Notes: a model not told the origin generated them from the letters alone. 64,000 nucleotides of DNA from Amphiscolops sp. MND2022 (GCA_964187785.1 OZ076419.1:32116001-32180000), one strand, 5' to 3'; shown: positions 11,599 to 62,731, numbered from the stretch's first letter. Numbers and translations are program-made.

Positions 11599-11738
11599 CT
11601 AAAACACAACCGCAAAACTAAAACAAAAATAATTAAATAAATAAATAAAAAAGTTTTTCTTTGCAGTAGTTACCTAAAGATTTTAGTACATGAGCATAAG
11701 GCTTAGAAACCTTGTAAACTAAAACCCCTCACATGATC

Positions 11739-13854: not shown

Positions 13855-13866
13855 AAAGAGGGGGAG
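13855..13866 (+). other. Polypurine tract of element A
   Basis: AAAGAGGGGGAG immediately before the LTR start TGTCA. Confidence 0.9.
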
Positions 13867-20517: not shown

Positions 20518-20699
20518 ATAAAAACAAGGCGCTCTCTGAGCACCGAATTTTTTTTCAATTCTGAACTTTATTTGAGGCGACATATTTTTGAGACTCGAGC
20601 GTAAACAATTGTTTACGCTCGAGTCTCAAAAATATGTCGCCTCAAATAAAGTTCAGAATTGAAAAAAATTTCGGTGCTCAGAGAGCGCCTTGTTTTTAT
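20518..20699. repeat. 182-bp spacerless palindrome (91-bp arms, one mismatch)
   Basis: Centre at 20608/20609 (AAACAA|TTGTTT); arms compared base by base. Confidence 0.97.
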
Positions 20700-23600
20700 T
20701 AATACAAAATATGCTGAAAAGTTTGGTTTATTTGTTGCCTTTTTTGGAAAAACCTTCATCTTTATCTCGAAAAGAGTATGCTAAGAAAATAATAAAGAAA
20801 ATATGGATATCATTACCACAAAAAATGCTTAAACTCACAAAAACTTACATGAAAATGGTCAGAAATTTTGACACTTTGTTGTTTATTTTAGGCATTTTTC
20901 CAACCAAAACAACTCGTTTTATACAAAAATTATGCAAAATCGCTAAATGCTTTGTTGTTGAACTGCAAAAAGTTGTTCAAAAATCCATAAAATTGGCAAA
21001 AAAGTTTTTTGTACGCATTTTTGGCTTTTTCGGACATTTTCAAAAATCAAAACCTTCAAATTTTCTATCAAAAAGTAAGCTAAGCATGTAATTATTTTGT
21101 CTTTGAAGGCTGTGGATGTTTTGACATTTTTGGCTCATTTTTGGGTCACTTCTCTTTCAATTTTCCGAAAAAGCTTCAAATATGCTTCGTCAAGAACATA
21201 TACTACAAATCTAATTTTATGCTAGATGAATTCTGTAGCATCAATCCCTCTATGATTAGTGTATAGAATTGGATCATTGCAAAGTCAGGCAAAAAAGGCC
21301 GTTGACTTCTTTTGCCCTTGTAATTTTTCTTTCCCTCATATAAAATATGGAGTCGGAAAAATCATTATTTGTTGTTCTTCATTTTCAGATTTCACATTAG
21401 GAAGTTTAAAAAAGATATGGACTGCAAAGAAAGATATGAAAAATGTTGCAATAAGCAATGTTAATTGAAGTGTATGTTCACCCAAATCTAATTGCCACAT
21501 GCCACCTAAAATTTTCGTCTGCCATTTAGACTCGCTTCCTACGTGGGTGCCTACAGGGGGGGGGTTGTGATTATCAGTTGCCAAGTTATTTCAGTAGCGT
21601 AAGAAATTATTTCACAACTATTACCACAACACGCGTGATGTGGCGTTGAAACCAAAGGCCTTGTTTTGTGTGTCCATAAAGAGTTGTGAAATTTTAATGG
21701 AGTCTTTTAGCCTTGCAATGATGACGGTCTCGCTTCCAGTTGGTCTAGACAGGGGTAACTTTAGGAGGTCTCAAGGAGATTGTCAGCCGTATAAGATGAA
21801 AAATCATGTTTTTCCTCTGAGCCATAAAGTAAATTATCAATCTTACTAACAATAGCTAGGAAAAACAAAAATATTTTCACACAATGATAACACACGACTT
21901 CAAAGAGCCGCTGCCTTGAGCCGGCGTCTAAAAATGCACGTGTGAAATAGCTCAAGGACGCAACTTGACAGAAAATCCTCGACGCAGATTAAATTGCGAA
22001 GTATAAATAATTTTCGCAAATGGAATTATCTTAAGTGGTTGAAAAACGTCTGTTGAATAAAATAGCAATGTGCCTTCACTGGTTAATTCAGCAACAACAG
22101 TTTCCATGAAGGTCGGCGGTTGTCGACTGAAATTTCAACTCGCGCCTTTGTTAATTCTTATTTTAGCAACTTGCCATTAACCATGCATTTTTCATGCATG
22201 CATAAGCTCTTAATTCGCTGCTGTCTAGCCAATTTCAAATCGTGAACAAATTCTTTAGGTATCAGAAGTGTGAAAAAAGCAACAAACAACTTGTGAACAA
22301 ACACTCATTCACGACCTTCATTTTTCTGCAGCGAACCAATTTGGCATCATTATAAGAATGAAAACCTTGAGATTTTCAAAGCTTTGCATTCATATCATGT
22401 CTGAACGTTACAAAAACTTGAATGCACCATGCAGCTTGCATGCACTTTTCTACTTACGATAGAAAACTCAGAATTAATGTCTTGAAACACGTCAATCATC
22501 TTTGGTATAGAGAATAAAAACAGTAAAATTAGCAAGAAAAGTTTTGTTGGAGTGAATAAAGCGTTTGATTTGCGTAATCAAATGCTAAGAGAAATTTCGC
22601 TTAAACCTCGAGACATTTTTGACAGTGTTTATCGAGGTTAATGCTACTTGAAATCGACTTCGGACTGTTTAGATTTACGATTGACTCAAGTTTCAGGGGC
22701 TTACAAGCCAAATTGGAATCAAATTTATTGGTACTTTTGACAAACAAAACTAGAAGCTGTATCGCATGCTCTGAGATTCCATGCAAACTTCAATGAAATG
22801 ACATTTCCATGAACTCTTGATGATTTACTATGTTTAACCCGATTTCACCTTCCTTGGAAATCTAGACCACAACTCGTAACAGGATTGTCATTATTTCACG
22901 GTACGACCGAGTCACGAAACGCATGGTAGTCCCATACATCATGCCCGAACTGTTCAATGATTCAATGCTTATACACAGTGTAGAAACTCTTGAAAACTAT
23001 TGATTCTGCTTTTCGTGAAACCTTTTGTAAGAATCTTGCCAAGATTCTTATCAAGAACTCCAAGAATATGTACGATCTTGTAAGATCTTGGCAAAATTTT
23101 CAAGATATTTTGCACAGGCATGATAGGGCAGATGAAAGTATTGGGCAGGTCACGACAATGCTCGCATCTACAACCTTAGTTCTCAAGAATAGATTGCTTC
23201 GAATGAACCTCGAAGAAGTATATTTTTCTTTCGAAGACATCGTAAAGTTATGACATCATACCGCAAACTGAAACTGACATCGCGAACCAAAAATCGAGCC
23301 TCGAATGATCGCTGCTCAACAAATATTGCTAACGGAACTTCAAACATAGTATTTACGGAATCATATTTTCAATGCATATCTAAAGGTGTGGGAACAATCT
23401 CCGAACTTTTCAATCTGAGGTCACAGGAACAAAAACAACACAAAGTACATGCTGCGCAGCTGAGTCAGCAAAATTTTTTGATCGTCGCTTTTGGAAAAAC
23501 GTGCGAGACTCTTACAGTGGCAAGTTTTTTTTTCAGGCACCATTGGAGGACTTTGGGGCAATTCATTGTTGTATGACTGGAGCTGTAAAATGTTGAAAAC

Positions 23601-24809: not shown

Positions 24810-25023
24810 CTTTATTGAAACGATTCAGTTTTGTATTTTCTAATTAACTCTTGTATCGTTTTTTCACAAAGTTGAGAACGAGATCAAAGAAATTGTAGAA
24901 CAACTGGTTTTAGCAAATGAAAAGGACTGACTCCCTAAGAAAACGAAGCGCCTCATATTTATACCCTCGTAGCATCATTTGATCACGAGTAAATCACTAA
25001 TATTCCATAAACAATTAGTCAAT

Positions 25024-27086
25024 TGTAAAGGTTCGATTGAGTTTAGGAGAAATTAGCCTTCTGAGACTCTTGATCAATAGTGTTTAGGAGTTAGTTTGCG
25101 ACTATGCCTTCCTAAACCTTTACAAAAGTTGTCTCTAGGTCTTCCGAGTTCGCAGGAAGGACTTTGTTTCGAGAGAAGAGTTTGAATATATGAAAAGAAT
25201 TTGAATTAGTTCGAGTATTATATTCAACAATGTTTGCTTTTACACAATACGCAAGAATACAATACAAACAGAATAATATAATCATCCAAGTTGACACAAA
25301 TATCCAATCAATAATATCTGAATTGTTTAGCATTCACCACAAATAAATACATCAATTATTTAGGGAGTAATGTTCAGGTAAGTTGTTTAAATACTATAAA
25401 AACTGGAATTTTCTGATCTTATTGTCCAGCAATTTGGTTAGGACAAGTGTGCTGACTTTTGGCCAGAATTACAGTCTATTCAGACCGGTTTGGGGTTCCT
25501 AGAGTTCTCAACAATGTAGTGAGAGTTACTAAGTCTATTGACAATTTACGTGACAGGTTTGTCACACGTTCTAGCTTATAGGAAGCGAAGAACTAGCTTA
25601 TAGGAAGCTGAGAGTTAAGTAAAATAGTTTTAGCCTATATGACCAGCCAATTACTAGGTCGAAGACAGGATTGTCTTGAGCATAGACTTATAAGAAGTCT
25701 TGCGAATCTAAGTGAATTAAGGGTCTTATCTAACCAGCATTCGCTAGGTTTTTGTTCGGACAAGATTGCCGATTGGGCTCGATCCAGAGGTTCGGTGCCG
25801 TGTTCTAAGAGTTTTAACCTATTGCAATGGACCAGCAAGTTTGCTAGGTCGAGAGGAAGACAAGTTTGTCTAAAGACTTTGAAGAAGTCTTGTGAGTCTA
25901 AGTGAGTTAAAGGCCTTATTTCAACCAGCAGTTTGCTAGGTTGCTTTTTAGACAAGATTGTCAGAATTCTGTTCAATACTTTATAAGGTTACATGCATTT
26001 TACTTTTTAATCAGTTTGTTTTACTTGCAAGTTAGCTGCAGTTATTGAAATGATCTAGACTAGCAGTCGCTAAGTCTTGACGCAATCGCGTACTAAGAGG
26101 AAAGTGATCTCCGTCGAGAATTGTTTGGGAGCGTTTAGCTCTAGTTAGTTTTCCCTATGATTTTCATAGGAGAACCTTGTCGGTTGTTTGTCTCTTCAGT
26201 CACTAGGACTGGGGGTTGTCTACAAAAGACAGGTAGGAAAAAGGAGCAAAGAAAAAAGAGAGAAATTTTGAGTTGTGAATTTTGAAGTTATTTTCTAAGT
26301 TAAAGAAAATAACTAACCTGAAGTTTGAAGCAAAGATTGGGTCGGAGAGATTTGTTCTCGCAAGAGAGAGATTTTTTTGAGAGAGATGATTTATAGCAGA
26401 GGCGAAGAGGAGAGTCAGAGTGAGAGTGTGCGAGAGATTTATGCGAGAAAAATTATGAATCAATTTGCTAGAGTCCGGCTTTTTATACGAGCCGACCGAA
26501 CGGTACAACCAATCAAATCGATTGGCGGTTTTTATTGGATACGAAATTATTTCGTCATTGCGTTGCTCATATTTGGAATCGTATTCACCACTGGATGCAG
26601 CCGAATTGGAGTCGGCGGTGATTGCATCAGCTACCGAATATGTTCGGCTAACCGAGCTGGCTGACGCAACTCTTTGTATTTGTCAGGGGAATTAATCCTC
26701 TCAAGTGGGGGACTTTGTTCCCACTTGAGAATTCTTTTGTTTAAAATTGAGAATTTGGCCGTACAAGTGGCGCCTATTATTCTCTTTTCAGAGATATTTA
26801 CTGGCACAAGTGGCGTCGCATATTGTCTTTTCAGGGGAGATAAAAGATAATTATTTGCACAAGTGGCAAGCGTTTTCTTTTGTAGAGGGGAATTCTCCCT
26901 TTCATATGACGCGCAGCTGTAATTTTGTTTATCTCTAAAGTTCTTTCAAGCGTGCCTGGAGAATTGAAAGAATTTGAGTAAGAGTTCACAAAAATTGAAT
27001 AAAAAAATTCTAGCTCCGATTGAATAATTTTCTAAATATGTTTTTTCAAATAATAAATTGAAGAAAAAGTTGTGTTAAACACAACA
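25024..27086 (-). repeat. 3' LTR of element B
   Basis: TG...CA termini; all seven ORF-track peptides match those of 39452-41514 exactly. Confidence 0.96.
25112..25333 (-). CDS. 73-aa single-transmembrane ORF in the LTR (3' LTR copy)
   Basis: ATG start; hydrophobic stretch IFVSTWMIILFCLYCILAYCV; function unknown. Confidence 0.35.
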   Translation of the reverse strand: MLNNSDIIDWIFVSTWMIILFCLYCILAYCVKANIVEYNTRTNSNSFHIFKLFSRNKVLPANSEDLETTFVKV

Positions 27087-27109: not shown

Positions 27110-27841
27110 TTAAGTTGAAAGGGGGGCATACAGGGTATTTATGACTTTTACTTCGAAAAATATGGAATTGTTTTTTAGCCAGGGGTTCTCTGGGTTCATG
27201 AGTTCATCATGTGGGATGAAGCACAAGATGGTGATTGCTGTATTGCTGGCTGTGGGAATAGGTTTCTTGAAGCACTCACTGTTGTTGTTATTCGTCACAA
27301 TGAGCTGTTTGTAGGGTTTGTAAATATTGCCTTGACCAAGGAGGTGTATCTCGATAACGCCTTGGAAGGGCCAAGTGAGTATCTCATCGTAGGGTCCCGG
27401 ACACATAGCCAAGCATACTGACATGTATTTCCCTTTGGCAGTGTCGATGCCATAAGGATAAGCTCGTAGATGAAAGGTGTACCCAAAGGGTTGTGAGAAG
27501 AAGATAGGGCTACAGACGTCTTTTAGGCAATTAGGATCACAATAGGGTGCTCTTACATGAGACAAACTTTTTTCGTATTTTTCAGCATTCTGAAAAATAT
27601 CAGAGAATTTATCAAGCCTCCAAATAACTTTGTAGAGGTTCCAATCCCGTGGAATTGATTTCTTTTCGATACGAAGGACTCGCATCTCAAGTGCGTCGAG
27701 CTTTTTACTGATCTCGTGTATCATATCAGAATCAAATGTGTCATCTTTATATTGGGTGATATTGAGTTTTTGTCGAAGCAATAGTAACTCATTGATTAGG
27801 GAGTAGCACGTAATGAATAATATCAAAATTTTACTGCACAT
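27110..27841 (-). CDS. TRAF-C (MATH) domain protein with N-terminal hydrophobic segment and short coiled coil, 243 aa, intronless
   Basis: TRAF-type motifs VIWRLDKFS, SPIFFSQPFGYTFHLRAYPYG, GKYMSV, GPYDEILTWPF, FKKP, NSIFFEVKV; no RING or zinc fingers. Confidence 0.9.
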   Translation of the reverse strand: MCSKILILFITCYSLINELLLLRQKLNITQYKDDTFDSDMIHEISKKLDALEMRVLRIEKKSIPRDWNLYKVIWRLDKFSDIFQNAEKYEKSLSHVRAPYCDPNCLKDVCSPIFFSQPFGYTFHLRAYPYGIDTAKGKYMSVCLAMCPGPYDEILTWPFQGVIEIHLLGQGNIYKPYKQLIVTNNNNSECFKKPIPTASNTAITILCFIPHDELMNPENPWLKNNSIFFEVKVINTLYAPLST

Positions 27842-27954
27842 TTTGGAACTAACTGGGGGAAATCTTAGGTGTTTGCCAGAGCTCAGTTTTCAGAGGGGCA
27901 AACTGTTAAGAAGAAAAAATCAAAAAGAGGAAAGTTAAACGGTAGCTTGCTAAC

Positions 27955-28103
27955 CGAGAGTTGGTGGAGTCGAATTTGACAACCAGTTAGAATCAAATTG
28001 ATTCTATTGTTGAAGAATGTTCTTCAGAAACGAGAGTTGGTGGAGTCGAATTTGACAACCAATTAGAATCAAATTGATTCTGTTGTTGAAGAATGTTCTT
28101 CAG
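27955..28103. repeat. Two tandem copies of a 76-bp unit upstream of the TRAF-like ORF
   Basis: CGAGAGTTGGTGGAGTCGAATTTGAC at 27955 and 28031. Confidence 0.9.
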
Positions 28104-28420
28104 GAACTGAAACGAGACAATTATTGTCTAACGTTTTCAACCAGGGTGAACACCGAATTTGGATTTGATAGCTTGCTAACCAAAAATAGGTGTAGTCACA
28201 GTGATCACTGCTTTAGATTTGAGATTGGTGCACAGGTCTATGGATTGAAGATTTCAGTGTCTGGCTCAATTGATAGCCGTTTTCATAAGTACTGAAAGTA
28301 CACTCTGTTATCAGAAGTGAAGTTATGGAATTTGGGATTTGAAGTGAAAGTTGAGAAAGAGGATCGTAAAATTTTATTTACCAAACAAAAATTTATTTCA
28401 AAACGAAAATGAGATGAAAT

Positions 28421-28885
28421 TTACAAATCATAAAACTGGATAAGATCCTTGTACAATTTGCTATATTTAGGTGAAGTGACACACTCAATGTCCATGACAC
28501 TGGTTAATTCACCTAACACAAGCAGATCAAATTTGGTGATGTGCCTTTCAGGTCTCTGTTCGTATGACAGGAGGGAAGCGGCTAGTGACGCGTATAGAAG
28601 GGTGTCCTTGTAGATTTGTTTCTGATACTTTTTGTCAGGCAGGTCGTAACGTTCAAAGTGAACGCAAATCTTGAATTCGTAGGTCCAAGTCCACCGAATA
28701 TAGGTGATCAAAAATTGTTTGTTGTTTTCAGCAACGAAAATAGTCCAGGGGCAATTGAAACTGAGTTCTTCGTACTTTTTCTCCCAGAGGGTATCCCAGT
28801 AAATAGTAGGAGGAGGATAAATTTGAGTAATCCTCGGTTTTGTTCTTTTGCGTGAGTCTTTTTTGAGAATAGACTGTGGGTTCAT
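28421..28885 (-). CDS. Orphan accessory protein, 154 aa from the ATG at 28885 (ORF track 181 aa); paralog of 29676-30086
   Basis: Shares CPW, WxW, KYxK, LYxSLxAxL, MDxxC and YxxxYxD with the 136-aa ORF; AATAAA about 25 nt after the stop. Confidence 0.7.
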   Translation of the reverse strand: MNPQSILKKDSRKRTKPRITQIYPPPTIYWDTLWEKKYEELSFNCPWTIFVAENNKQFLITYIRWTWTYEFKICVHFERYDLPDKKYQKQIYKDTLLYASLAASLLSYEQRPERHITKFDLLVLGELTSVMDIECVTSPKYSKLYKDLIQFYDL

Positions 28886-29103
28886 TAGAGATGGTTGTTT
28901 TCTCCTCTGAACAAATCCGAAGGTATGTCTCCCACAAATTTCATAAGGTGGAGAAAATAGTCCCAATATACTGAATGTTGATCTACAAAAACAATATCTT
29001 TTTTCGAGGTGATGTAGTGCTTTACATAGATATAGATTCTGTCTTGATGCAGCTCAGTTCTATAGATCCGGTAGAATTCGTTTTCAATTTTGATGTAGGT
29101 CAT
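28885..29103 (-). CDS. Orphan accessory ORF, 72 aa (MTYIKIENEF...), stop overlapping the next start
   Basis: ATG at 29103; its TAA overlaps the ATG of the 154-aa ORF (TAATG). Confidence 0.5.
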   Translation of the reverse strand: MTYIKIENEFYRIYRTELHQDRIYIYVKHYITSKKDIVFVDQHSVYWDYFLHLMKFVGDIPSDLFRGENNHL

Positions 29104-29127
29104 ACGACGAACTGAAATAGTCAAAAG

Positions 29128-29568
29128 TTTTTTACCCACGGCAGAGATTGATACTATGATCGTTACCGTGCTGAAAAGTTATTTACCCACGGCAGAGATT
29201 GATACTTTGATCGTTACCGTGCTCGTTTTTGTGAAAAATTCTTTACCCACGGCAGAGATTGATGCTATGATCGTTACCGTGCTGAAAAGTTATTTACCCA
29301 CGGCAGAGATTGATACTTTGATCGTTACCGTGCTCAATTTTGTGAAAAAGTTATTTACCCACGGCAGAGATTGATACTATGATCGTTACCGTGCTGAAAA
29401 GTTATTTACCCACGGCAGAGATTGATACTATGATCGTTACCGTGCTTAATTTTGTGAAAAAGTTATTTACCCACGGCAGAGATTGATACTATGATCGTTA
29501 CCGTGCTCAATTTTGTGAAAAGGTTATTTACCCACGGCAGAGATTGATACTATGATCGTTACCGTGCT
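29128..29568. repeat. Minisatellite: 8 copies of a core of about 41 bp, unit lengths 51 or 60-61 bp
   Basis: TTACCCACGGCAGAGATTGAT at 29132, 29183, 29243, 29294, 29355, 29406, 29467 and 29528. Confidence 0.95.
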
Positions 29569-29675
29569 CAAGAATTTCTGAAACGAAGGACTACAAATTA
29601 GTTATCAGTTTACGTTAAAATGACAATGAAGAGGAGAGAAAAAGAATTTTGACAAGAAGACTTTTATTTACAATA

Positions 29676-30086
29676 TTAGAAATCTTCCATTTCCTGCCAC
29701 AGCTTTAGAGTTTCAAGGAAATCAATGTACATATCATTGTAGCTCGAGTTTTTACAAACATTGTCCATCTGGCTAGAGATGGTGTTGAGAGCGTCGACTT
29801 CTTGTTTTGATAGCTGTGGTTCGGGTTTCCTCATGAACGTTACTAACGCCGCAGTGAGGGACACATAAAGGAATGAACCGGGTTTGACCCATTTGTGGTA
29901 TTTTTGTTTGGACCGGTAGTTATGGAATTTAACTTCTACATCAGCAGTTGGGTGCCAACTCCAACTTAGTTCTTCGATGATCATCGAGATTTCTTCTAAT
30001 TCGGGCATGATATTCCAGGGGCAGCATTTGAAATTTATTTTGTTTATAATCACAATAGGGATGTCGTACGCAATGACAGGCTTCAT
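29676..30086 (-). CDS. Orphan accessory protein, 136 aa; paralog of 28421-28885
   Basis: ATG start, shared motifs with the paralog, AATAAA at 29668-29663. Confidence 0.7.
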   Translation of the reverse strand: MKPVIAYDIPIVIINKINFKCCPWNIMPELEEISMIIEELSWSWHPTADVEVKFHNYRSKQKYHKWVKPGSFLYVSLTAALVTFMRKPEPQLSKQEVDALNTISSQMDNVCKNSSYNDMYIDFLETLKLWQEMEDF

Positions 30087-30997
30087 CTTTGGTTGGCTTG
30101 GGCTGAAGTTTGGTCAAAATAGATACTAAAGCACGAAAATGCTGCTTGACTTACTTTGTAAAATTTAAACAAATATTACAATTGCAAGAGCTGGATTTTT
30201 CAAAAAGCGAAATTTCATACTATTGTTTTTGTTCTTTTCACAAGGTTCTCCTTTAACAAGGCTTTGTCTTTTCTTTTGTTTGTCTACTTCTTTTGTTTCC
30301 TTTTGTAGCCTTTATTGAATAGATTCTTGCATTCTTTTGTTTTCTACATGCTTTTGTTGTTACATGCAGTGGTTCCTTTTGTAAACTCCTTTCAGTTGTT
30401 GACTTTTGTTTTTCGTTTTCTATGGTTTGCATCACTGGCTTTCATCGGCTTGTTTTGTAAAGATCGCGCTTTTGTTGTTGGGTAACGGCGGGTGCCATAT
30501 GTGTTTTTGAAGTAGAGTGTTGAAGTTAGCTTTGTATTGAATGCGCTTTTGTTATGGTTCAGTTCTTTTGGTGCCATGTGTTTTCGAGTGGTTTGAAAAG
30601 TTGTTTGTTCACAATGTGCTTTTGTAATGGTTCAATTCTATGGACGCCATGTGTGTTTTTGAAGTGGTGGCCCAAATTCGGTTTGTGTTGAATGCGCTTT
30701 TGGATGTTAGTCTGATCTCTTCACATTTACAAGTAAGTTCGGTTTTCATTTTCAACTTTTGCTTTTTCTTGAATTTTTGGTAACGTGTATATGACACGCT
30801 CGACCGCCGAAAAAGAAGTAGAGAAAAAGGTTTGAGCCATATGGTGGGGAAGCTTGGAGAGAAAGAAATGAAAGAAAAACAATTCTGAAGAACGGAGTGG
30901 AAAATGGGGGAAATTTTTAAACGGCATAAGGGGGGTGGTGAAAACGAAATTTGAGGTTGTAATTTAGTTGCGTTTCTTTAGGCTGTTTTAGTACACG

Positions 30998-32437: not shown

Positions 32438-35400
32438 TTAATCTTTATAGCCTTTTCTCTCAATGTCTCGGAGGGAACTGCCAGGGGTGCTTCGTTCGTA
32501 TTTGGGGTTTTTGGGTTTTTCGGAAAACCGTGTAGTTACTTTCTTTTTGAAGTTAGATAGTTTTCCTGTTTTTGGGGAAACTTGATCAGGGGGAGACACT
32601 GTGTGGATTGGAGGAACGGATGGGAGAACCGGTGTTCTCTTGGGTAGGGGAGTGTTAGAAGAGAATGCGAGTGGTAAGACTGCCACAGGGAGACGTGGTG
32701 TTTGCATAGGTGGAAGTGGATTTGTTCCACAGCTTTGAGGGATACGTTCCCTTAGAATGGAATTGTTAGACGTAGATGGGATCGGGGTGTGAAATTGTGG
32801 GGTTTTCGGAGAAAGGATTCCAGAATCGGTACTGGGGGAAAATTCAGAACCCTTAGAAGTATTGTTATTCGATCCTGAAAGTGGAGTGATAATGAGTGGC
32901 ATAAAATCTAGTTTATGCTCAGGTTGTCCCGAGTTGTGTTTGTCAATTTGAGTTTGGACCAAACGCTTGTAAAAATTATCGTCCTGTTCTACAGGAGCGT
33001 AATTTGTCAGCAATGGGGGTAAAGTTTCCTCTTTGGGAAAATACTCTAGTAAGTGGTTTCGGTGAGTTACTTTAACATTTTCGGGGTTCTCATCTTCTTT
33101 AATCTCGTATGTGGTATTGGTTATTTGTTTTGTTACCGTGAAAGGTCCCACTCGTAATTGTTTCAATTTCTGTGATTTGGATAGGTCGGGTTTGTGATTC
33201 TCCAATAGGACCTTTTGACCAACCGCGAGCGGTCGTCCTAGTTTGAAACGGTTCCGATACTCATGAGCTTTCGATGTGATCTCTCTACATCTTTTGTAGG
33301 TAGATGAGTATATTGATTTGAAGTCGTTTTCTCTTGTAAGTAGTTCGGAAGATAACTGTGGTCTAAGGAGTCGATCGAGGGACTTGTTTCTGAGGTTATT
33401 CTCACTATGGGTGTGAGGTTGTAAATCTGCACAAAATTCTGATTTACATTGTTTGTTTTTGTCGCGAATTAGCCCAAGTTTCAAAGTCATCGGTATTTGA
33501 GGTTTGACGCCGAAGACAATCTCGTAGGGGGTCATACCCGTTGTGTAATTTACGCTTGTGTTATGGGCAAAAGCGAATTTAGATGCAAGTGTTGACCAGT
33601 TGTTTCCTGACTCGTTGGTGAAATTCCTCCAGTATCTCATGAGGTGTTTGTTTTGGACTTCAACTTTGCCATTTGTCCAGGGCGAATAAGCAGTGCGCGG
33701 TGCCAGCGTTATTCCGAACTCTTTGGTCCAATTTACAAAATCGCGGTTGATAAACGCTGAGCCATTATCGTGGACGATTTTTTGGGGAATGCCGTAGGAT
33801 GTGATCCATTTTTCTAGGGCATTGATTGTGGTCTGAGCTCCTGTATCTCGGACCGGATAGACTCCAAGAAATCTCGAGAATGCATCTACTACAACTAGAC
33901 AATGTGTATTCAGGTTACTGCTTGGTCTGATGGGACCTTTGTGGTCGATATGGATTGTTTTGAAGGGGGTTGTCTCGAGTTCGCCCCATTGTTCAAGAGG
34001 AGCTTCTTGTAGATCGTGTCGTTTAGACTTGTTAGTCTGGCATTGTAGACAATCTTCTATCAGGGATACTATCCACTTATATCGTCCAGGCCAAAAGAAA
34101 TTTTGTCTGATGTTTTCGAATGTTTTAAATATGCCTGGGTGGCCACTGTGAGTATGAGCGTGGGCCAGATTAAAGAGGGGTAGGAATAATGATAAGGGGA
34201 CACAGATTTTCATTTCGCATTTGTCCGTCCCATGAATAGGTTCGTTATAGCAGAGTAGGTTGCTTTCTTTATCGAGAAAAAGTTGATTGAAATTGTTGAA
34301 GTACGACAGCAAAGCCTTCGATTGGTGAATCTCTGGTGTTTTGGCGTTCGGCTTATTCTTGTTTCTAACCCAAGCTCGTACAATTTGTAATACAGGATCG
34401 TTGATTTGTTCTGCAACTAAGGTGGTGATGTCCAAATCAGCGGTTTTAGAGTAATCGCTGAGTTTTTGTAAGAGGTCTTTGGTATCAACGTGTGGGAATT
34501 GCTCGACATCTAAATTCTTGTTCAATAGAGGCCTTTCACTTTTCTGTGAAATGTTCTTTTCTTTCGCAGTTGATTTATCGCGATAGAACTCGTGATCTTC
34601 GCTAGAAAGGTGAAGTTCGGCGACTTCCTCTTCATCGTCACTGGAATCGGTTTCGATGTCGTCTATTCTACTATACTCGGGTTCATACTGTATTTTGTAT
34701 GAGGGTAGACAGAGGTTTTTGTATTGATTGATGGATTTTCCCAGTTTGAAACAGTCAGCGATGTCTTGGCGAGTCGCCATTACTGTTTGTTGGTTCTCAT
34801 AGTGCTCTACTTCATGTTCTTCTCCGTCATTCTTGAGATGGAGTAGCCTTTGATCTTTGCCTTTTTGGCAGAGGATAGGGAAAAAGTCATTGCTGCCACA
34901 ATGACCATCGTCATTATGCTCGATTGCATAGTGTACTTTCGATCCAAATTCATCATAGAAACTGATATCTCGCGGTATTTCTTTGTGTAGTTTTTGTAAG
35001 TTTTGGGTTTCTTCCAGCGTGACATTTCTACTAAGTATGTCTGGGAATGCGAGGTTGGATCCTTTAGTCCAGATGATTTTGAGGTTTTGGAACTTGGTGA
35101 TGATTACCTGATACTTGAAAAAGCGATGTGAAAGCTGTCCTTTTCTTCCCCAGAGGTATAAAATAGGTTTGTGATCGCAATAGAGGTATATTGGAAATGG
35201 AGATCCAATAATGTAGTGTTCGTATGTTTGGAGTGCTGATACTATGCCACACAATTCGCGATGAAGGGTGGACATCTTTTGTTCAGCTTTGTCAAATACG
35301 CGGGAATTGAAAGAAACTATCCTTTTTCCTTCTGGAAATTGTTGAACTAGTATACAACCAGTACCAACGTTCGAAGAATCGACGTGTATGTGGAAGGGGT

Positions 35401-38026
35401 ACTCAGTTGAAGGGACAGCAAGAATAGTGTCCTCACATATACGACTTTTTATATCAGTGAAGAGGTCTTCGTGTTCTTTCGTCCATTTGAAAGGCGTTGT
35501 AGCTTTTATCAAATCGTAGAAGGGCTGGCTATCCACGTGTAAGTTTTTGATATAGCAACTGTAAAATCCAAGACAGCCAAGTACTTTCATCACATCTCTT
35601 TTACTTTCGGGTGATTTTAAGTTTTTTAGATCCTGTACTCTTTTTGCTAAGGGTTGTATTCCTTGTTCAGAAATAACATGTCCTAGGAATTTGACTTTCC
35701 TGATGAAGAAATTCGTCTTCTCAGGTGCAGCTTTAAGTCCGGCTTTCCTCAGGAGCTGATGGTACTCATGAATTATCGTGAACATTTCTTGTTTGGTCTG
35801 AGCCTGCATAAGACTGTCATCGAGATAAGTGATAGCTTGTTTTCGCTTGATGAGGGGCTCAAAATGTATAGCCATGAGACGGCTAAAAAAGTTTGGAAGT
35901 CCACAGAGTCCGTAGAAACCACGTACATACGTGTACTGTTTTCCGCCGATAATAAAACTAGTGAGTTTTTGGGTCTCGTCGCTCAAAGGTACTTGGTGAT
36001 ATGCGCAGGATAAATCGCTGACCGTGAAGTACTTTCCGTTAATCCGAGTCATAATCATCTGAATGGGTTCCAATGGCCACGAGTAATTTGTCAGATCTGT
36101 TATGGAATTTAAGTAGCGGGCGTCGATTACTAACTTTACGTAGTCTGCTTTGGGCATCAGAATGATCGGATTGACAAAAAGGGAACCTAGTTCGTCATCG
36201 TCTCCCATTTCTCTAATGATATCGGCTTCTTGGAGTTGTCCAAGTAACTTCTCAAGTTTGTCCTTCAAGTGAAGGGGTACTTTGCTTGGTCGTTGTTTCT
36301 TGAGTTCTGAATTGGCTTTGAGTGTTACGTGAAATTTTTGACGTACTTTTCCCACGTCGAATTTGTGTTGCGAATACACGTCTGCTGAGTCAATAAGCAT
36401 ATCTATTAGGACAACCAATTCTTCATCTTGGAGGTCAGTATATCGGAAATCGAATTTTTTCACATATTCCTTGATTTCTTCACGCTGATATTGGAGGTAG
36501 TATTCTATCAAAGCGTCGTTATCTTCTTTTGTTCTAAGTTCAACAAATTGTTCTGTACAGGGTGGCTGACAAGATTTAGCGTCCGTAGCAAAATCTGTTT
36601 CAAGTTCTTCAGTACCATTAGCAAATTGTTCTGTATAATAGTCAATATCTCCTTCTTCTACTTCTTCTTTTCGTATGGAAGCGTTAACAAGTTGGAGGTT
36701 CGGTTCGTTTCGTGATACGATCTCGACTTTAATATGTCCATAATCGAAGCTGTTACGGATTATGTCCAAAGCTCCTTTCCAGTGGATGTTATCTAAGCCA
36801 TCTTCAATTTTGGGTATTGAAATTGCAGGTATATTGTTTAGTTGTGCGTGTCCAACCAAATTTTCGATGCAACTGCGAAAATCTTCGGGTTTAATTTTTT
36901 CGTAACATCTCTTTTTTGCAACTAGTCCATAGATGAAGCGATTGGCTTCGTTATCCCAAAAGGGTAAAACTGATCCGACGAAAGGTTTCGATTGGTTCAC
37001 GAACTTCTGAAAATCTTTCTTCTGTTCGCACAACCTTTTTGCGAACGTGGTTGTCATTTTTCCATCTGCTGAGACACAAAAAGCTAGATTTGCATTTGAG
37101 GCTCGAAGGGTCTCGCCGGAGCCGTGGCTTAGAAAAACTTGTTGGTCTCCTTCGTGTTCGAAGGGAACTGTTGAGTGTAGCAAGAAACAGTCGTTGTAGT
37201 CTGGGTTTTCCTTTAAAATTGTGTTGACCATCGTGACACAATCCTTTATCTGGAACTTTGGTCGTTCTTTTTCCTGTAGGTCTATGACAGCATGACCAAT
37301 TATTCCTCTATTAAGGGTTATTTGGTGATTTCGATTATTTTCAATCAAAATTGGCAGGTGGGATTCGGACTTCGTACATAAAACATTCACAAAGGTAAGT
37401 CCTGTTTTGACTGCATTTTTGTGGGGTGTGAATGATGTTCCGGGTGCAAAATGTCTGTTATTTTCGCGGGAGTACTTGTGTAGGCGGGTAGTTTTGGCAT
37501 CGATGCAAATTGGGTTATCTGTTCGTATTGTTTCGACCTTTGAAACGTACGGGAAGGGTTTGGTAGCACAAAGGTTACCGTAGCAAATCGTGTTAGGACT
37601 GTCTTTCAATTCGATTGCAGGCAAATCAAAATGTAATTTAGAAACAAGTTGACGGCAGAAATCTATTCCCAGTAAATTGGGTGTCTTCGCTTCTGTTATC
37701 CAAAACTTTAGCTCTACAGGATGGAGTCCATCCGAGTCGAAACTGAATGTGATTGTTGTTGATCCAAGCATCGGTATAACTTCGCCAGTATAGGTTTTAG
37801 TCAGCTGTTTGCTCCTGACTACCGTGATGGGTTGTCCAAACTGTGCAATTTCCTCAAAAGCTCTGTAATTGATGATTGAACAGGCTGCTCCTGTATCTAG
37901 CATGAATTCTATTTCTAACCCACTATCTTTTTTGGAGTCTCCGGTGGGAAAAAAGAAGAGATTTAGGTGAAAACGTGATTTGAGGTTACTTTCTTCGTCA
38001 GGTCGCGGAGACTTTAGCAGTTTAAA
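32438..38026 (-). CDS. pol: Pol of element B: protease, macro domain, RT, RNase H, integrase; expressed by -1 frameshift from gag
   Basis: LDTGA; YLDD; HVDSS / ELCG / CDHKP; HHCC; IHIDHKG / VHDNGSAF / VEVQN; GPF. Uninterrupted 1821 aa from ATG 37903, with the frame open back to 38026. Confidence 0.97.
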   Translation of the reverse strand, partial: FKLLKSPRPDEESNLKSRFHLNLFFFPTGDSKKDSGLEIEFMLDTGAACSIINYRAFEEIAQFGQPITVVRSKQLTKTYTGEVIPMLGSTTITFSFDSDGLHPVELKFWITEAKTPNLLGIDFCRQLVSKLHFDLPAIELKDSPNTICYGNLCATKPFPYVSKVETIRTDNPICIDAKTTRLHKYSRENNRHFAPGTSFTPHKNAVKTGLTFVNVLCTKSESHLPILIENNRNHQITLNRGIIGHAVIDLQEKERPKFQIKDCVTMVNTILKENPDYNDCFLLHSTVPFEHEGDQQVFLSHGSGETLRASNANLAFCVSADGKMTTTFAKRLCEQKKDFQKFVNQSKPFVGSVLPFWDNEANRFIYGLVAKKRCYEKIKPEDFRSCIENLVGHAQLNNIPAISIPKIEDGLDNIHWKGALDIIRNSFDYGHIKVEIVSRNEPNLQLVNASIRKEEVEEGDIDYYTEQFANGTEELETDFATDAKSCQPPCTEQFVELRTKEDNDALIEYYLQYQREEIKEYVKKFDFRYTDLQDEELVVLIDMLIDSADVYSQHKFDVGKVRQKFHVTLKANSELKKQRPSKVPLHLKDKLEKLLGQLQEADIIREMGDDDELGSLFVNPIILMPKADYVKLVIDARYLNSITDLTNYSWPLEPIQMIMTRINGKYFTVSDLSCAYHQVPLSDETQKLTSFIIGGKQYTYVRGFYGLCGLPNFFSRLMAIHFEPLIKRKQAITYLDDSLMQAQTKQEMFTIIHEYHQLLRKAGLKAAPEKTNFFIRKVKFLGHVISEQGIQPLAKRVQDLKNLKSPESKRDVMKVLGCLGFYSCYIKNLHVDSQPFYDLIKATTPFKWTKEHEDLFTDIKSRICEDTILAVPSTEYPFHIHVDSSNVGTGCILVQQFPEGKRIVSFNSRVFDKAEQKMSTLHRELCGIVSALQTYEHYIIGSPFPIYLYCDHKPILYLWGRKGQLSHRFFKYQVIITKFQNLKIIWTKGSNLAFPDILSRNVTLEETQNLQKLHKEIPRDISFYDEFGSKVHYAIEHNDDGHCGSNDFFPILCQKGKDQRLLHLKNDGEEHEVEHYENQQTVMATRQDIADCFKLGKSINQYKNLCLPSYKIQYEPEYSRIDDIETDSSDDEEEVAELHLSSEDHEFYRDKSTAKEKNISQKSERPLLNKNLDVEQFPHVDTKDLLQKLSDYSKTADLDITTLVAEQINDPVLQIVRAWVRNKNKPNAKTPEIHQSKALLSYFNNFNQLFLDKESNLLCYNEPIHGTDKCEMKICVPLSLFLPLFNLAHAHTHSGHPGIFKTFENIRQNFFWPGRYKWIVSLIEDCLQCQTNKSKRHDLQEAPLEQWGELETTPFKTIHIDHKGPIRPSSNLNTHCLVVVDAFSRFLGVYPVRDTGAQTTINALEKWITSYGIPQKIVHDNGSAFINRDFVNWTKEFGITLAPRTAYSPWTNGKVEVQNKHLMRYWRNFTNESGNNWSTLASKFAFAHNTSVNYTTGMTPYEIVFGVKPQIPMTLKLGLIRDKNKQCKSEFCADLQPHTHSENNLRNKSLDRLLRPQLSSELLTRENDFKSIYSSTYKRCREITSKAHEYRNRFKLGRPLAVGQKVLLENHKPDLSKSQKLKQLRVGPFTVTKQITNTTYEIKEDENPENVKVTHRNHLLEYFPKEETLPPLLTNYAPVEQDDNFYKRLVQTQIDKHNSGQPEHKLDFMPLIITPLSGSNNNTSKGSEFSPSTDSGILSPKTPQFHTPIPSTSNNSILRERIPQSCGTNPLPPMQTPRLPVAVLPLAFSSNTPLPKRTPVLPSVPPIHTVSPPDQVSPKTGKLSNFKKKVTTRFSEKPKNPKYERSTPGSSLRDIERKGYKD
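36715..37140 (-). other. TARG1/Poa1-type macro domain within Pol
   Basis: LAFCVSADGKM...FAK, FIYGLVAKKR, SIPKIEDGLDNIHW, IKVEIV are collinear with the TARG1 consensus AHCxSxDxxMGxGIA, YYLxTK, MPRIGCGLDxLxW. Confidence 0.8.
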
Positions 38027-39408
38027 GGATTGAACGAGACTGTACTAACTCTGTCCTGTCCTTCTTCGTCAATGAACTGTACGGAGTTTGGGAAACTGTT
38101 ATTGTTGGTCGGGAAATTTCGGTTGTACTCAGAATTTGTGTTTTGTGGTCGTGCACTGAAGTTATACGGGCTATTTGGCCTATTTCCAGTATAGGGTGTA
38201 TTATTTCGCAAATTGGTACTAGTAGAAGTTGGTCTACTACTTGAAGGGTGATTGTTATTGCCATTGAAGTTGTTGAAGTTGTTTGACTGCTGAGAATTAT
38301 TTCGGTTCCAGTTTTCATTTCGATTGTTTCCTTCGTTAGGTCTGCCTCTGTTGAAGTTTTGGTTCGACTGTTGGTTACTTCTTTGATTATTGGTGAAGTT
38401 CGGTCTTGGTGAAGACTGATAATTTTGTTGTGATCCAAATCCGGGTCCCTTCCGTTTGTTGTAGTCGTTGGTGAAGGTGACCTTCTTCTCTTCATTAGCT
38501 CGTGATTGTGCTCTCTTGGCTTCGTCATCGTAGATCTTCTTTCGGCAATATTGGAGTGTATGACCCTTCCTTTGGCAGTATTTACAAAATCGTGTGATGT
38601 TTTGGCGGGACGTGTTATTTACGTCTACTGCAGAGACGTGATAATCATGCCAGTGAGAGGATGGGCATCCGTAGGGTAGAGAGTTAGTTACAGCTAAAGA
38701 ATTGACTTGTTGTTCTTTGAGCATATTCTTCATTGCGTTGATGTCTTCTCGTAGTTCGTTTATCAACGTTTTTTGGTTTTGTGAGGAGTTCGGAGCTAGC
38801 TGAGAGCTGATAGTAAAAACAAGGTCTTTATTAGTTACATGTTCCTGAAATTGTTCCCAAGTAGCGTTGGGGTGTTCAATTAGGTATTGGTGAGCCTTGT
38901 TCTTTAGTTCGTTAGGCGTTAGTCCTCTGACTGCAAATTCAATGTACTTTTGCCTTCTTTGAGCGTTCAGTGCGGCTCTAGCTGCGTTATCAGCATTTTC
39001 TTCGTCTGGCCATCCTCTATCGACAGCTCGTTTCACTCGGTGAAAGTAGTTCTTTATTATTTCTTCATTCCCTCTGACACTATTTTCTGCAGTTATTCTG
39101 TATCTGTATTTATCTCTATTGTCGGAAAAGCGGGTTAGGAAATGGGTTCTAATATGTTGCCAATCGTGTCCATCTCCTATGTTGTCTGTATACCACTCGG
39201 CGGCAGGTCCTCTTAGTAGGGATGAGAAAAGTGCTTTTTTGCGAAATAAGTATCTTGCTCGATCGTCATCATTGTCGGGTTCATGACCCATCGAGAAATT
39301 GATTTTGTTCTCAACAGTTGTGAGAAATGATCTGACATCTTGTTCGGGATCGTTTCCTGAGAATTTGTCCAAAGCGAGGTCGGGAAATGAAACTGTGTTG
39401 TCTGCCAT
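38014..39408 (-). CDS. gag: Gag of element B, 464 aa
   Basis: Capsid-like KFSG...SSLLRGPAAEWY; zinc knuckle CKYCQRKGHTLQYC; Asn-rich tail. Confidence 0.95.
   Translation of the reverse strand: MADNTVSFPDLALDKFSGNDPEQDVRSFLTTVENKINFSMGHEPDNDDDRARYLFRKKALFSSLLRGPAAEWYTDNIGDGHDWQHIRTHFLTRFSDNRDKYRYRITAENSVRGNEEIIKNYFHRVKRAVDRGWPDEENADNAARAALNAQRRQKYIEFAVRGLTPNELKNKAHQYLIEHPNATWEQFQEHVTNKDLVFTISSQLAPNSSQNQKTLINELREDINAMKNMLKEQQVNSLAVTNSLPYGCPSSHWHDYHVSAVDVNNTSRQNITRFCKYCQRKGHTLQYCRKKIYDDEAKRAQSRANEEKKVTFTNDYNKRKGPGFGSQQNYQSSPRPNFTNNQRSNQQSNQNFNRGRPNEGNNRNENWNRNNSQQSNNFNNFNGNNNHPSSSRPTSTSTNLRNNTPYTGNRPNSPYNFSARPQNTNSEYNRNFPTNNNSFPNSVQFIDEEGQDRVSTVSFNPLNC
38020..38026 (-). other. -1 frameshift slippery site U UUA AAC (element B)
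   Basis: Phased with gag codons just before the gag stop; the -1 frame is continuous with pol; an 8-bp stem AGTCTCCG/CGGAGACT starts 6 nt downstream. Confidence 0.85.
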
Positions 39409-39431
39409 TCCTCTCTTTTGCTTGAATGTCG

Positions 39432-39448
39432 CCTCACTGGTCGCACCA
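39432..39448 (-). other. Primer-binding site of element B
   Basis: TGGTGCGACCAGTGAGG, 3 nt after the 5' LTR; the tRNA identity is uncertain (pattern resembles elongator tRNA-Met). Confidence 0.75.
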
Positions 39449-39539
39449 GTTTGTAAAGGTTCGATTGAGTTTAGGAGAAATTAGCCTTCTGAGACTCTTG
39501 ATCAATAGTGTTTAGGAGTTAGTTTGCGACTATGCCTTC

Positions 39540-39761
39540 CTAAACCTTTACAAAAGTTGTCTCTAGGTCTTCCGAGTTCGCAGGAAGGACTTTGTTTCGA
39601 GAGAAGAGTTTGAATATATGAAAAGAATTTGAATTAGTTCGAGTATTATATTCAACAATGTTTGCTTTTACACAATACGCAAGAATACAATACAAACAGA
39701 ATAATATAATCATCCAAGTTGACACAAATATCCAATCAATAATATCTGAATTGTTTAGCAT
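39540..39761 (-). CDS. 73-aa single-transmembrane ORF in the 5' LTR, upstream of gag
   Basis: Same sequence as 25112-25333; sense orientation; lies in the predicted leader. Confidence 0.35.
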   Translation of the reverse strand: MLNNSDIIDWIFVSTWMIILFCLYCILAYCVKANIVEYNTRTNSNSFHIFKLFSRNKVLPANSEDLETTFVKV

Positions 39762-40908
39762 TCACCACAAATAAATACATCAATTATTTAGGGAGTAATG
39801 TTCAGGTAAGTTGTTTAAATACTATAAAAACTGGAATTTTCTGATCTTATTGTCCAGCAATTTGGTTAGGACAAGTGTGCTGACTTTTGGCCAGAATTAC
39901 AGTCTATTCAGACCGGTTTGGGGTTCCTAGAGTTCTCAACAATGTAGTGAGAGTTACTAAGTCTATTGACAATTTACGTGACAGGTTTGTCACACGTTCT
40001 AGCTTATAGGAAGCGAAGAACTAGCTTATAGGAAGCTGAGAGTTAAGTAAAATAGTTTTAGCCTATATGACCAGCCAATTACTAGGTCGAAGACAGGATT
40101 GTCTTGAGCATAGACTTATAAGAAGTCTTGCGAATCTAAGTGAATTAAGGGTCTTATCTAACCAGCATTCGCTAGGTTTTTGTTCGGACAAGATTGCCGA
40201 TTGGGCTCGATCCAGAGGTTCGGTGCCGTGTTCTAAGAGTTTTAACCTATTGCAATGGACCAGCAAGTTTGCTAGGTCGAGAGGAAGACAAGTTTGTCTA
40301 AAGACTTTGAAGAAGTCTTGTGAGTCTAAGTGAGTTAAAGGCCTTATTTCAACCAGCAGTTTGCTAGGTTGCTTTTTAGACAAGATTGTCAGAATTCTGT
40401 TCAATACTTTATAAGGTTACATGCATTTTACTTTTTAATCAGTTTGTTTTACTTGCAAGTTAGCTGCAGTTATTGAAATGATCTAGACTAGCAGTCGCTA
40501 AGTCTTGACGCAATCGCGTACTAAGAGGAAAGTGATCTCCGTCGAGAATTGTTTGGGAGCGTTTAGCTCTAGTTAGTTTTCCCTATGATTTTCATAGGAG
40601 AACCTTGTCGGTTGTTTGTCTCTTCAGTCACTAGGACTGGGGGTTGTCTACAAAAGACAGGTAGGAAAAAGGAGCAAAGAAAAAAGAGAGAAATTTTGAG
40701 TTGTGAATTTTGAAGTTATTTTCTAAGTTAAAGAAAATAACTAACCTGAAGTTTGAAGCAAAGATTGGGTCGGAGAGATTTGTTCTCGCAAGAGAGAGAT
40801 TTTTTTGAGAGAGATGATTTATAGCAGAGGCGAAGAGGAGAGTCAGAGTGAGAGTGTGCGAGAGATTTATGCGAGAAAAATTATGAATCAATTTGCTAGA
40901 GTCCGGCT

Positions 40909-40966
40909 TTTTATACGAGCCGACCGAACGGTACAACCAATCAAATCGATTGGCGGTTTTTATTGG
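40909..40966 (-). promoter_or_regulatory. Putative LTR promoter of element B (CCAAT boxes and TATAAAA)
   Basis: Minus-strand CCAAT at 40966-40962 and 40953-40949, TATAAAA at 40915-40909; the same motifs lie at 26481-26538 in the 3' LTR. Confidence 0.6.
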
Positions 40967-43900
40967 ATACGAAATTATTTCGTCATTGCGTTGCTCATAT
41001 TTGGAATCGTATTCACCACTGGATGCAGCCGAATTGGAGTCGGCGGTGATTGCATCAGCTACCGAATATGTTCGGCTAACCGAGCTGGCTGACGCAACTC
41101 TTTGTATTTGTCAGGGGAATTAATCCTCTCAAGTGGGGGACTTTGTTCCCACTTGAGAATTCTTTTGTTTAAAATTGAGAATTTGGCCGTACAAGTGGCG
41201 CCTATTATTCTCTTTTCAGAGATATTTACTGGCACAAGTGGCGTCGCATATTGTCTTTTCAGGGGAGATAAAAGATAATTATTTGCACAAGTGGCAAGCG
41301 TTTTCTTTTGTAGAGGGGAATTCTCCCTTTCATATGACGCGCAGCTGTAATTTTGTTTATCTCTAAAGTTCTTTCAAGCGTGCCTGGAGAATTGAAAGAA
41401 TTTGAGTAAGAGTTCACAAAAATTGAATAAAAAAATTCTAGCTCCGATTGAATAATTTTCTAAATATGTTTTTTCAAATAATAAATTGAAGAAAAAGTTG
41501 TGTTAAACACAACACAATTCCTGTATTTTCGATGAAAAAGTCATTATAATCCCAAATTTGCGTCGACTTGTCGTCATTTTTTAAGACACGACATTTCTTA
41601 TCTAGCATTAGTCATCAAACATGATCATATCCTTTCATTCCGGCGTCCTTTTGTTTCCTCCCAAACAGGAAGTAGATATTACTTCAGTCCGTCAAACTGG
41701 AAGTATTTCCCCGTTTTACTAATTTGGTTCGTTAGAAACTGACGCGGAAATGACGCTGACGTGAACAACTGATACCTGATTTTGATTTTTTACTCGATGA
41801 AAATCACGACTAATCGCAGCTGTTTGAAATATTTGGAGATGCTAGGAGAATAAGAGAGCTGATTTTCGGATGAGTGTGCTTAATTTAGGAAAAAATTATC
41901 ACATTCAATCCTCAAATATCCGAACTGACATGATTAATGTAATCATAGGATAGCGCCGTGACAACGTCAAAATAATTATTACAACCGAAATTTGAACATC
42001 AACAATAACTTTCAACTAGCATACTGATCATTTAGGCTTATTAACGCAAAATCGAAAACATAGCATCAACGCAGAGACATCATAGTAGATAATATGAACA
42101 TACCATTATAAGGTATGAGATTAATACTAGAAAATATCATTTCTGACAAGTTTCATTACTTGATCGATGAGCGCGTCACAACAACGTCACTCTGTACAAA
42201 GTACTAGACAGAGGTTTATAACAAGCAACAAGGATGAGTATTTGTATTAATTCCCAATAGGTTAACTGTGACCTCCGTTCGTTAAAAATAGAAAGGTTTC
42301 ATTTAGATTAAACCTTCAGTGTTATCTTAGATCAGCAATAATCCTTTTGACGAGGAGTTGACGTATTCTACAGTTTTCCTGATATCCCGGTTTCAACTTA
42401 AGCCTAAACTTTGCATCTACTTTGTGTCATTTCCATTAAATTAACGCTGATTTTATCATTTTGGATGGGTTGAAACAGCTATTTTGATGGATTTGCGACA
42501 TAGCGTTGACAAGGTTTCTTAGCTAAATTGGCTAGCTGCCAAGTTTGACGAGATGCTGACGAGTCTTTTGGAATGAAATTCTGACTAACTGTCGAGTAAT
42601 TTGGAATTCTTTGTTAGCTGACAAGTTAGTGACGCATTGCTGATGTCACAAGTATGGTAATATTTGCATGTACCGTCAAGATTTGTTTACTTAGCGATGA
42701 GACGTCGTCCTAATTCTACATTAATTGCTGTTCAAAGAACAATTAAGCTGCATTCCCTTAGAAGAGGCATAATTCTTTCGGTGTACCATCTCAATGTAGT
42801 TGCTGTTTTAGATCTGATTGATGTTCTTTCTCATAGATGATTTTGGATATGTTCTCATTTAGATTAGTCTGTGATCTATATTCCAAGACGTATCGTAATT
42901 TTGTTTTCAGGTGGCGAATGTATTTATTTTGACGGGGCAAAAAAGCGTCTGAACGGAAATGCGTGCAAACATTTTGATTCATTTAGTTGCCAGTATTCAT
43001 TTTCATTTATGATTTGCGCAAAGTAGACGAGTACTTCGTGTTTTTAGTCACAGTTTATTTTGAAAATAAGTAATATAGTTTGAGTTCAATACCCGAAATA
43101 CCACTTGGAGAACCTCTGAATGGACCCCTGACGATTGCTATTCTTCTGCAGTTACACCCCAGACCGGGAGCGGACTGTGACTAAATGGATCTGAATTTTA
43201 AATTCTGGTGCTTCCTGTATCCGTTTTCGAAGATTTTGTTTGTTTGGTGGTCTACAGGCTGAGCACTACGAAAAGCTGTAACAGACCACACCGGCGACAT
43301 AAAAACAGGACTCTATCCATCGGGACGCGCACCCACGCAAGTAAAATGGGCCAGTGATGAATGACCGTCAGCCCTGGAAAAATAAATCATTTATGGCAGT
43401 TCCACCCATTGTATAACGTTTAAGCAACCTGATAACGCTTGTTGTTACATATTACAGACTACATGTAGAAAATTTACATTGTGAGGGCGGAGAGACTTTC
43501 CCAAGAATCTAACCCTAACAGAAAAAAGTTTTTCTTTGGTGGATAAGTGTTTTGCGTTGAGTAGCTTGACTAGGTTTCTCTTCAGCTCTCCGGTATGCTC
43601 TTCGGCTCAACTCAACCGATCATAAAAAGAGATGTCCAATAACCCAATCCAAGTTGTAATCAAAACCATCTCTTCAAAAAATATCGAAGCAATAAAACAA
43701 ACTCGCTAAGATTGAAATCCACGATTCAGTCGAACATTCAAAGGCAAGTCCCTGTTTTGTACAATGTCTGACTTTAGAACTACTACTGACGAACGAGTTC
43801 TTTAGCTTAGCCAAGTCTCTTGCTTTCGTCCTAAGGCTCAACTTACTGGTAGCTCTCTAACTCCGTTGCGTTCAATCAAGTAAATTCCGAATCCGCATCA

Positions 43901-52609: not shown

Positions 52610-52808
52610 TGTGGTAGAGCGCTACATTGTCACCTTCACTAATGTAAAAACAGTTGTGAGAAAATTATTAAGTACTAACAACCTGCCAAAATAGGCCAAA
52701 GTGGCAAAATCAGAAATATAGCTACATACACAAGAAACGTCATTCAAAACAGTTTACATCCCGTTACTGTTCTCACTTCATCGAGCTAGAATTTTTTGAG
52801 CTATTACA
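52610..52808 (+). repeat. 5' LTR of element C
   Basis: TGTGG...TTACA; matches 62743-62941. Confidence 0.93.
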
Positions 52809-62550: not shown

Positions 62551-62731
62551 AATCGAACTTTTATGTTATTGCTTAACATTATTGCAGGATAGTTGGGTTG
62601 ATAGTACTGTGCCCAGTTAAAGAAAGTGATGTAAACGTAAACGACGAGTCTTACTCGTAAATTGTGAAGTTAATTAAGTACATTCCAGTGATTTTGATAT
62701 TTGTCCATTTTGTTCCCCTTTTTCTCCCAAT

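Follow-up and report, generated by a model that had tools for sequence, protein, structure and literature searches.

The nearest described structure to the domain discussed here is human TARG1, which removes ADP-ribose from protein and from DNA (PMC9411070; PMC8501950). As described in PMC6397177, the GxG loop of TARG1 holds the pyrophosphate and S35, T83 and D125 hold the distal ribose, with H32 contributing a main-chain amide only. K84 attacks, D125 resolves the intermediate, and the pattern of the subclass is TKx(30,35)Px[IL]GxGxD (PMC6397177). G43 is required for both binding and catalysis; ADP-ribose binding and catalysis are lost in the G43E, I44E and G123E proteins, and RNA binding persists in G43E and G123E (PMC5928194). 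The glycine mutants described in that work are Gly-to-Glu, not Gly-to-Thr, exchanges, and no test of a G121 mutant was found in the accessible text of the TARG1 literature. Viral TARG1-like homologues seldom have the full set of essential residues, according to PMC4245714. Among retroelements, macro-domain ORFs were reported in fish epsilon-like endogenous retroviruses (Basta et al., 2009, cited in PMC4977317). PMC6431247 describes a dUTPase-like region between protease (PR) and reverse transcriptase (RT) in the planarian gypsy elements Burro/GYPSM1, together with MATH_TRAF_C, which one species has in an accessory ORF; the word "macro" is absent from that paper. Our searches of the open-access literature gave no report of a macro domain in a gypsy Pol, and repeat databases may already list the fusion. 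No statement of this kind occurs in the accessible text of PMC3248453, PMC9289625, PMC8672886, PMC7729036, PMC4695847 or PMC4245714, and the open-access searches revealed no work on the function of a macro domain in any retrotransposon.

The retrotransposon and its accessory genes

In this study, we analysed a 64,000-nucleotide stretch of DNA from Amphiscolops sp. (the window), in which a 16.5-kb LTR element lies on the minus strand. Its 5' LTR (39452..41514), of the TG...CA type and followed by a PBS-like TGG, is identical to its 3' LTR (25024..27086), with 2064 identical positions in a row over the 2.06-kb repeats, and a 4-bp target duplication (41515-41518 and 25020-25023) flanks the two LTRs. 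Therefore, the element is a very recent, intact insertion. The paired TG...CA LTRs, the target-site duplication and the primer-binding site, together with a gag followed by a pol that reads PR-RT-RNase H-integrase in Pfam, identify it as Ty3/gypsy, and the best PDB match of the clade Pol profile was Ty3 Gag-Pol. No clear polypurine tract was seen 5' of the 3' LTR. The gag ORF (38014..39480, minus strand; Retrotrans_gag, E=4.8e-5) overlaps the pol ORF (32438..38044, minus strand; 1868 open codons), which is in the -1 frame relative to gag. By direct reading, a slippery heptamer of the UUUAAAC type (38020..38026, minus strand) sits at the gag end, which suggests that Pol may be synthesized as Gag-Pol through -1 frameshifting. 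In a macro-less relative (P0187) gag and pol are fused in a single 2106-residue frame, whereas the window element has separate frames. On both strands of the long LTRs there are also open frames, 104-159 codons in length (39560-41514 and 25130-27086).

Downstream of pol, an accessory ORF (27110..27889, minus strand) encodes a TRAF-C (MATH) domain (Pfam E=8e-22), and no RING or zinc finger was found in it by Pfam. Its cluster comprises 61 records, and over the first 20 residues it departs from the 250-residue form usual in the family; the altered start adjoins a 76-nt tandem duplication (27952-28103, within the region 27800-28110). The first-pass annotation had seen the novelty of the locus mainly in the combination of a TRAF decoy with a macro domain. 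The case for this novelty is weak, because TRAF-C is already described for planarian gypsy elements in PMC6431247, and none of our results ties the TRAF ORF to the macro domain. Two further accessory ORFs (28421-29053 and 29676-30113, minus strand) are paralogous (29% identity over 106 residues, E=4e-15), and neither has a Pfam match. A tandem array at about 29060-29580 separates them, and one of them belongs to a cluster of 21 records.

Elsewhere in the window, positions 1-14847 hold a second, distantly related LTR element on the plus strand, with terminal repeats 97% alike, a pol with interrupting stops and several accessory ORFs without convincing Pfam match; tblastn gave no macro or MATH match in it. 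A 171-nt tandem array (19181-19930), a 194-nt near-perfect palindrome (20512-20705; 97%) and five tandem units of about 1.34 kb (52600-62900) were also observed, the last with degenerate pieces of RT and integrase beyond them (about 59400-61600).

The macro domain and its active site

Pol residues 304-443 (36716..37135, minus strand) were assigned to a TARG1-type macro domain by phmmer, AlphaFold2 and Foldseek. A phmmer search against the PDB returned six sequences up to E=10, of which five were human TARG1/C6orf130 (E 2.4-3.1e-11). The AlphaFold2 model reached a pLDDT of 91.4 with a 78-row alignment of homologues as input, a confidence that is no proof that this particular variant folds. In Foldseek the top eight matches were TARG1 chains (E 9e-12 to 2e-10, TM about 0.8), with DarG next. 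The Pfam Macro family (PF01661) scored 18.2 bits (E=0.0025), below its gathering score of 22 bits. The first-pass annotation had proposed a TARG1-type macro domain in Pol and named a macro-fold match as its check; human TARG1 at E about 2e-11 and a macro fold with TARG1 as the nearest structure bear this out. Its placement between protease and RT was correct as well, with one refinement: protease and macro domain are separated by a region of 168 residues (37145..37648, minus strand) that has a weak dUTPase-like fold (best E=1.5e-3). All 27 fold matches listed for this region were dUTPases, and the Pfam scan of Pol gave no dUTPase match there. With about 115 spacer residues C-terminal to the macro domain, the order in Pol is PR, dUTPase-like region, macro domain, spacer, RT, RNase H and integrase.

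Residue equivalents were mapped through the phmmer alignment to human TARG1. The motifs MTTTFA (Pol 330-335), VAKKR (375-379) and IEDGLD (413-418) are exactly those quoted by the first-pass annotation, which had described altered glycine loops beside a retained catalytic Lys and Asp, and we observed the same. In loop 1 (MTTTF, Pol 330-334; 37043..37057, minus strand) Thr333 stands at the position of human G43. The glycine is found in 0/15 window-family rows covering this loop and in 53/54 rows of seven related clusters. At Ala376-Lys377 (36914..36919, minus strand) the T83 equivalent is changed (T in 0/11 family rows) and the K84 equivalent is kept (K in 10/11). The phosphate loop E414-D415-G416-L417-D418 (36791..36805, minus strand) has lost the first glycine of GxG and carries two acidic residues; across the family rows G121 is kept in 0/11, G123 in 9/11 and D125 in 11/11. 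In the window domain the counterpart of H32 is Phe, that of G43 Thr, that of T83 Ala, that of P91 Ile and that of G121 Glu; the last four of these positions, all changed here, are conserved at 85-93% elsewhere. The equivalents of S35, K84, K90, G123 and D125 are kept, in the window domain and in a diverged subfamily alike. The TARG1 pattern occurs in 0/11 window-family rows spanning the catalytic region and in 102 of the 150 phmmer matches listed (426 found). The alignments indicate that the domain is of TARG1 descent, yet outside the published membership pattern of TARG1.

The remainder of the domain is better preserved. Across 72 outside TARG-like proteins, 25 columns reach a conservation of >=80%; the window domain keeps 16 of these, and three canonical relatives keep 24, 23 and 22. 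It also keeps 36/39 core hydrophobic columns, without indels relative to four relatives, and its net charge (+3) lies within the range of canonical relatives (0 to +4). At the position of the adenine-binding Asp, human D20, the whole clade has extra residues.

The altered loops are not a property of one copy. The 90% cluster that includes the window Pol has 168 records (15 of them among the members listed), and 19 of the 27 family rows compared carry part of the macro domain. A second subfamily, 10-14% different in the macro domain, has the same loop states, and the changes are fixed across the element's family. Decay of a single copy, or a chance match, is therefore highly improbable, even though decayed family copies with an in-frame gap in the macro domain do occur (P0011, P0026). 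Every family row covering the loops, in both subfamilies, has identical states, the window copy has an open Pol and identical LTRs, and TARG1 is strongly matched in both sequence and fold; the LTR identity and the family-wide states refute this explanation.

Gain of the domain and fate of its pocket

The search with the PR-to-RT region yielded 83 proteins among 5889 candidates, and a TARG-like profile matched in 11/84 Pol rows. A quick tree of RT-RNase H (24 rows, SH-aLRT only) placed P0177 as sister to the window family (support 91), both within a larger group of families that bear the macro domain (support 86). P0186, which has the domain as well, falls among macro-less relatives at a poorly supported position. 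The macro domain occupies the same insertion point in all macro-bearing rows, which favours one gain in the clade; the alternative is a gain followed by losses. In macro-less relatives the dUTPase-like region joins the spacer directly, and the protease-to-RT distance is 341-361 residues (5 rows) compared with 510 in the window Pol. The related-family clusters comprise 36 to 617 protein records, so these families are apparently abundant. A first metagenome scan revealed no relative among 118 pattern matches, and a second gave three loci from 321 pattern matches, with the macro domain in none. A macro tree (153 rows, 144 columns) had too poor a resolution for naming a donor.

Several of these relatives retain a complete site. 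Among the members listed, up to 15 per cluster, the TARG1 pattern was found in 7/7 rows of the P0177 cluster, 11/13 of P0178, 5/5 of P0180 and 3/3 of P0028, altogether 26/28 rows. It is absent from P0181/P0182 (0/21), in which D125 and both GxG glycines are missing in 21/21 rows, and from P0186 (0/6), in which the site is only partly changed. Judged from these residue states, the P0181/P0182 lineage lost the site independently, and P0186 is a third, partly diverged lineage.

Relative-rate tests located much of the change on the window branch. With P0178 as outgroup, 32 changes in the macro domain fell on the window branch and 5 on that of P0177 (p=7e-6); with a second outgroup the numbers were 30 and 6. 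None of the other six Pol regions was faster on the window branch (window:P0177 = 17:17, 11:5, 8:20, 1:3, 20:29 and 2:4), and the macro domain differed from the rest of Pol (Fisher p=1.8e-6). The P0182 lineage had a weaker excess in its macro domain (32:14, p=0.011; 27:15, p=0.088). The window and P0177 macro domains share 41% identity. Between subfamilies of the window family the macro domain is 10-14% different, the RNase H-integrase tether 10% and TRAF-C about 10%. In the canonical family P0178 the divergence is 8-12% for the macro domain and 11-12% for the tether, and within-family protein divergence as a test for relaxation set the window family no further apart than canonical families. 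These comparisons show a burst of macro change on the stem lineage, compatible with relaxed and adaptive change alike. Simple ongoing decay is disfavoured, because the present-day divergence of the macro domain resembles that of the tether and TRAF-C.

In the history that we consider best in agreement with these data, a TARG1-type ADP-ribosylhydrolase would have been inserted into Pol of a gypsy clade ancestor, between the dUTPase-like region and RT. The ancestral domain was probably a working hydrolase carried with Gag-Pol. As part of Gag-Pol it would enter the particle together with RT and integrase, and there it might free the element's proteins or its new cDNA of ADP-ribose attached to Asp/Glu or to thymidine. 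Several sister families would still have the complete canonical site, whereas in the window family the phosphate- and ribose-binding loops would have changed in the stem-lineage burst, most likely leaving poor or no ADP-ribose binding and hydrolysis. It is probable that the pocket of the window family is disabled and that the domain persists as a folded, in-frame pseudoenzyme module, with at most a pocket-independent binding of nucleic acids as its remaining role. We favour this because the pocket is changed family-wide while close sister families keep it intact. The activity is also dispensable, since P0181/P0182 lost the site separately and macro-less related elements exist. On the other side stand the retained catalytic residues and the kept S35, K90 and G123 equivalents; moreover, members of the macro class can act without the canonical dyad, as described for SCO6735 in PMC9411070. 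The intact dyad leaves room for residual activity or repurposing.

A still-active de-ADP-ribosylase of shifted specificity, shielding the element from host ADP-ribosylation, would account for these retained residues (K84 equivalent in 10/11 and D125 equivalent in all 11 family rows) and for the intact, recently inserted element; H32, which is changed here, gives only its main-chain amide in TARG1 (PMC6397177). We nevertheless regard it as unlikely, as the G43, T83, P91 and G121 equivalents are all changed and two acidic residues stand in the phosphate loop, and at 41% identity to the sister domain the chance retention of two given residues is not a rare event. The anti-ADP-ribosylation factor of the first-pass annotation is accordingly weak for the window copy, with G43, T83 and GxG changed, and fits the sister families better. 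The annotation's other suggestion, a repurposed binder, is possible in that the fold is kept and the burst is confined to the macro domain. Such a domain might bind RNA or a host protein, or trap ADP-ribosylated targets on its lysine, the burst then being adaptive. Acceleration only in the macro domain and on the window stem, followed by rates ordinary for an accessory domain, the preserved fold and length and the K84 equivalent kept in all three non-canonical lineages would agree with this, as would the RNA binding of pocket-dead human TARG1 (PMC5928194). However, the replacement residues differ between the lineages without a common new motif, and the net charge has not shifted. The three divergent lineages have 6/25 conserved columns in common versus about 4 expected by chance, as calculated from their retention rates, so that the kept lysine is not significant; among the papers listed in a literature search, none supported an AP-lyase role of this lysine. 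Altogether, repurposing seems quite unlikely. Rather doubtful, too, is the broader proposal that the clade's enzyme acts against host ADP-ribosylation and that several lineages, including that of the window, independently became a non-hydrolysing trap or RNA-binding module with the lysine kept. If true, it would mean a repeated switch from enzyme to decoy in a transposon-host arms race.

For the window copy itself the result is a modest one, a probable pseudoenzyme. The related families form a graded series, from lack of the domain through a canonical and a partly changed site to a lost pocket, and so lend themselves to a clean biochemical comparison. With this series it can be tested whether LTR retrotransposons are restricted by ADP-ribosylation and whether they carry a counter-defence as RNA viruses do, with the canonical sister families, not the window copy, as the best test material.

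Comparison with known systems

The fold of the window macro domain is common to many viral proteins. Among the phmmer matches, 149 were Pfam-scanned (150 listed of 426); nine contained gag, protease, RT, RNase H or integrase, and one was a picorna-like polyprotein. Ten other retroelement polyproteins (P0069, P0078, P0095, P0103, P0116, P0131, P0139, P0145, P0166 and P0222) also combine this macro subtype with PR, RT, RNase H, integrase or gag domains. The position of the macro domain varies among them (after PR, after RNase H or after integrase), and they are scattered in a weak tree; 7/10 have the TARG1 pattern with relaxed gap. The fish endogenous retroviruses resemble the window element in that a retroelement captured a macro domain, but belong to the Retroviridae and not to gypsy, and the accessible text of PMC4977317 names neither the subtype nor an activity of their macro domains. 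Thus, mobile elements have captured this macro subtype repeatedly, and there are earlier examples of lost site residues, as in the viral homologues described in PMC4245714.

Two of these proteins deserve separate mention. In P0145, an unrelated gypsy-type Pol, residues 1172-1513 hold a TARG-type macro domain after integrase and then a Tpt1/KptA RNA 2'-phosphotransferase (Pfam E=3e-6), which possibly unites a writer and an eraser of ADP-ribose in a single polyprotein of a retrotransposon. P0102 is a 3401-residue picorna-like polyprotein with a TARG-type macro domain near its start (residues about 39-160), which adjoins the domains of the window clade in a weakly supported tree.

As far as PMC6431247 describes them, Burro/GYPSM1 share MATH_TRAF_C and a dUTPase-like PR-RT region with the window element, in which the dUTPase match is weak. 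They differ in being >30 kb long and in encoding a single giant polyprotein with env, BIR and BCL2-like domains, whereas the window element is 16.5 kb long and has separate gag and pol ORFs, and Pfam gave no env, BIR or BCL2-like match in it. The DarG antitoxin macrodomain (PDB 5M31, 5M3E), the next-best fold match, has its catalytic lysine at the same place (PMC9411070), but only 15-16% identity to the window domain; NCBIfam DarG did not match the window domain and gave sub-threshold matches for two sisters. Human TARG1/OARD1/C6orf130 (PDB 4J5Q, 4J5R, 4J5S, 2LGR), of the ALC1-like macrodomain class, shares with the window domain the fold (TM about 0.8, 25% identity) and the K84, D125, S35, K90 and G123 positions. 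The window domain differs from it in residing inside a retrotransposon Pol and in the changed G43, T83, P91, G121 and H32 positions.
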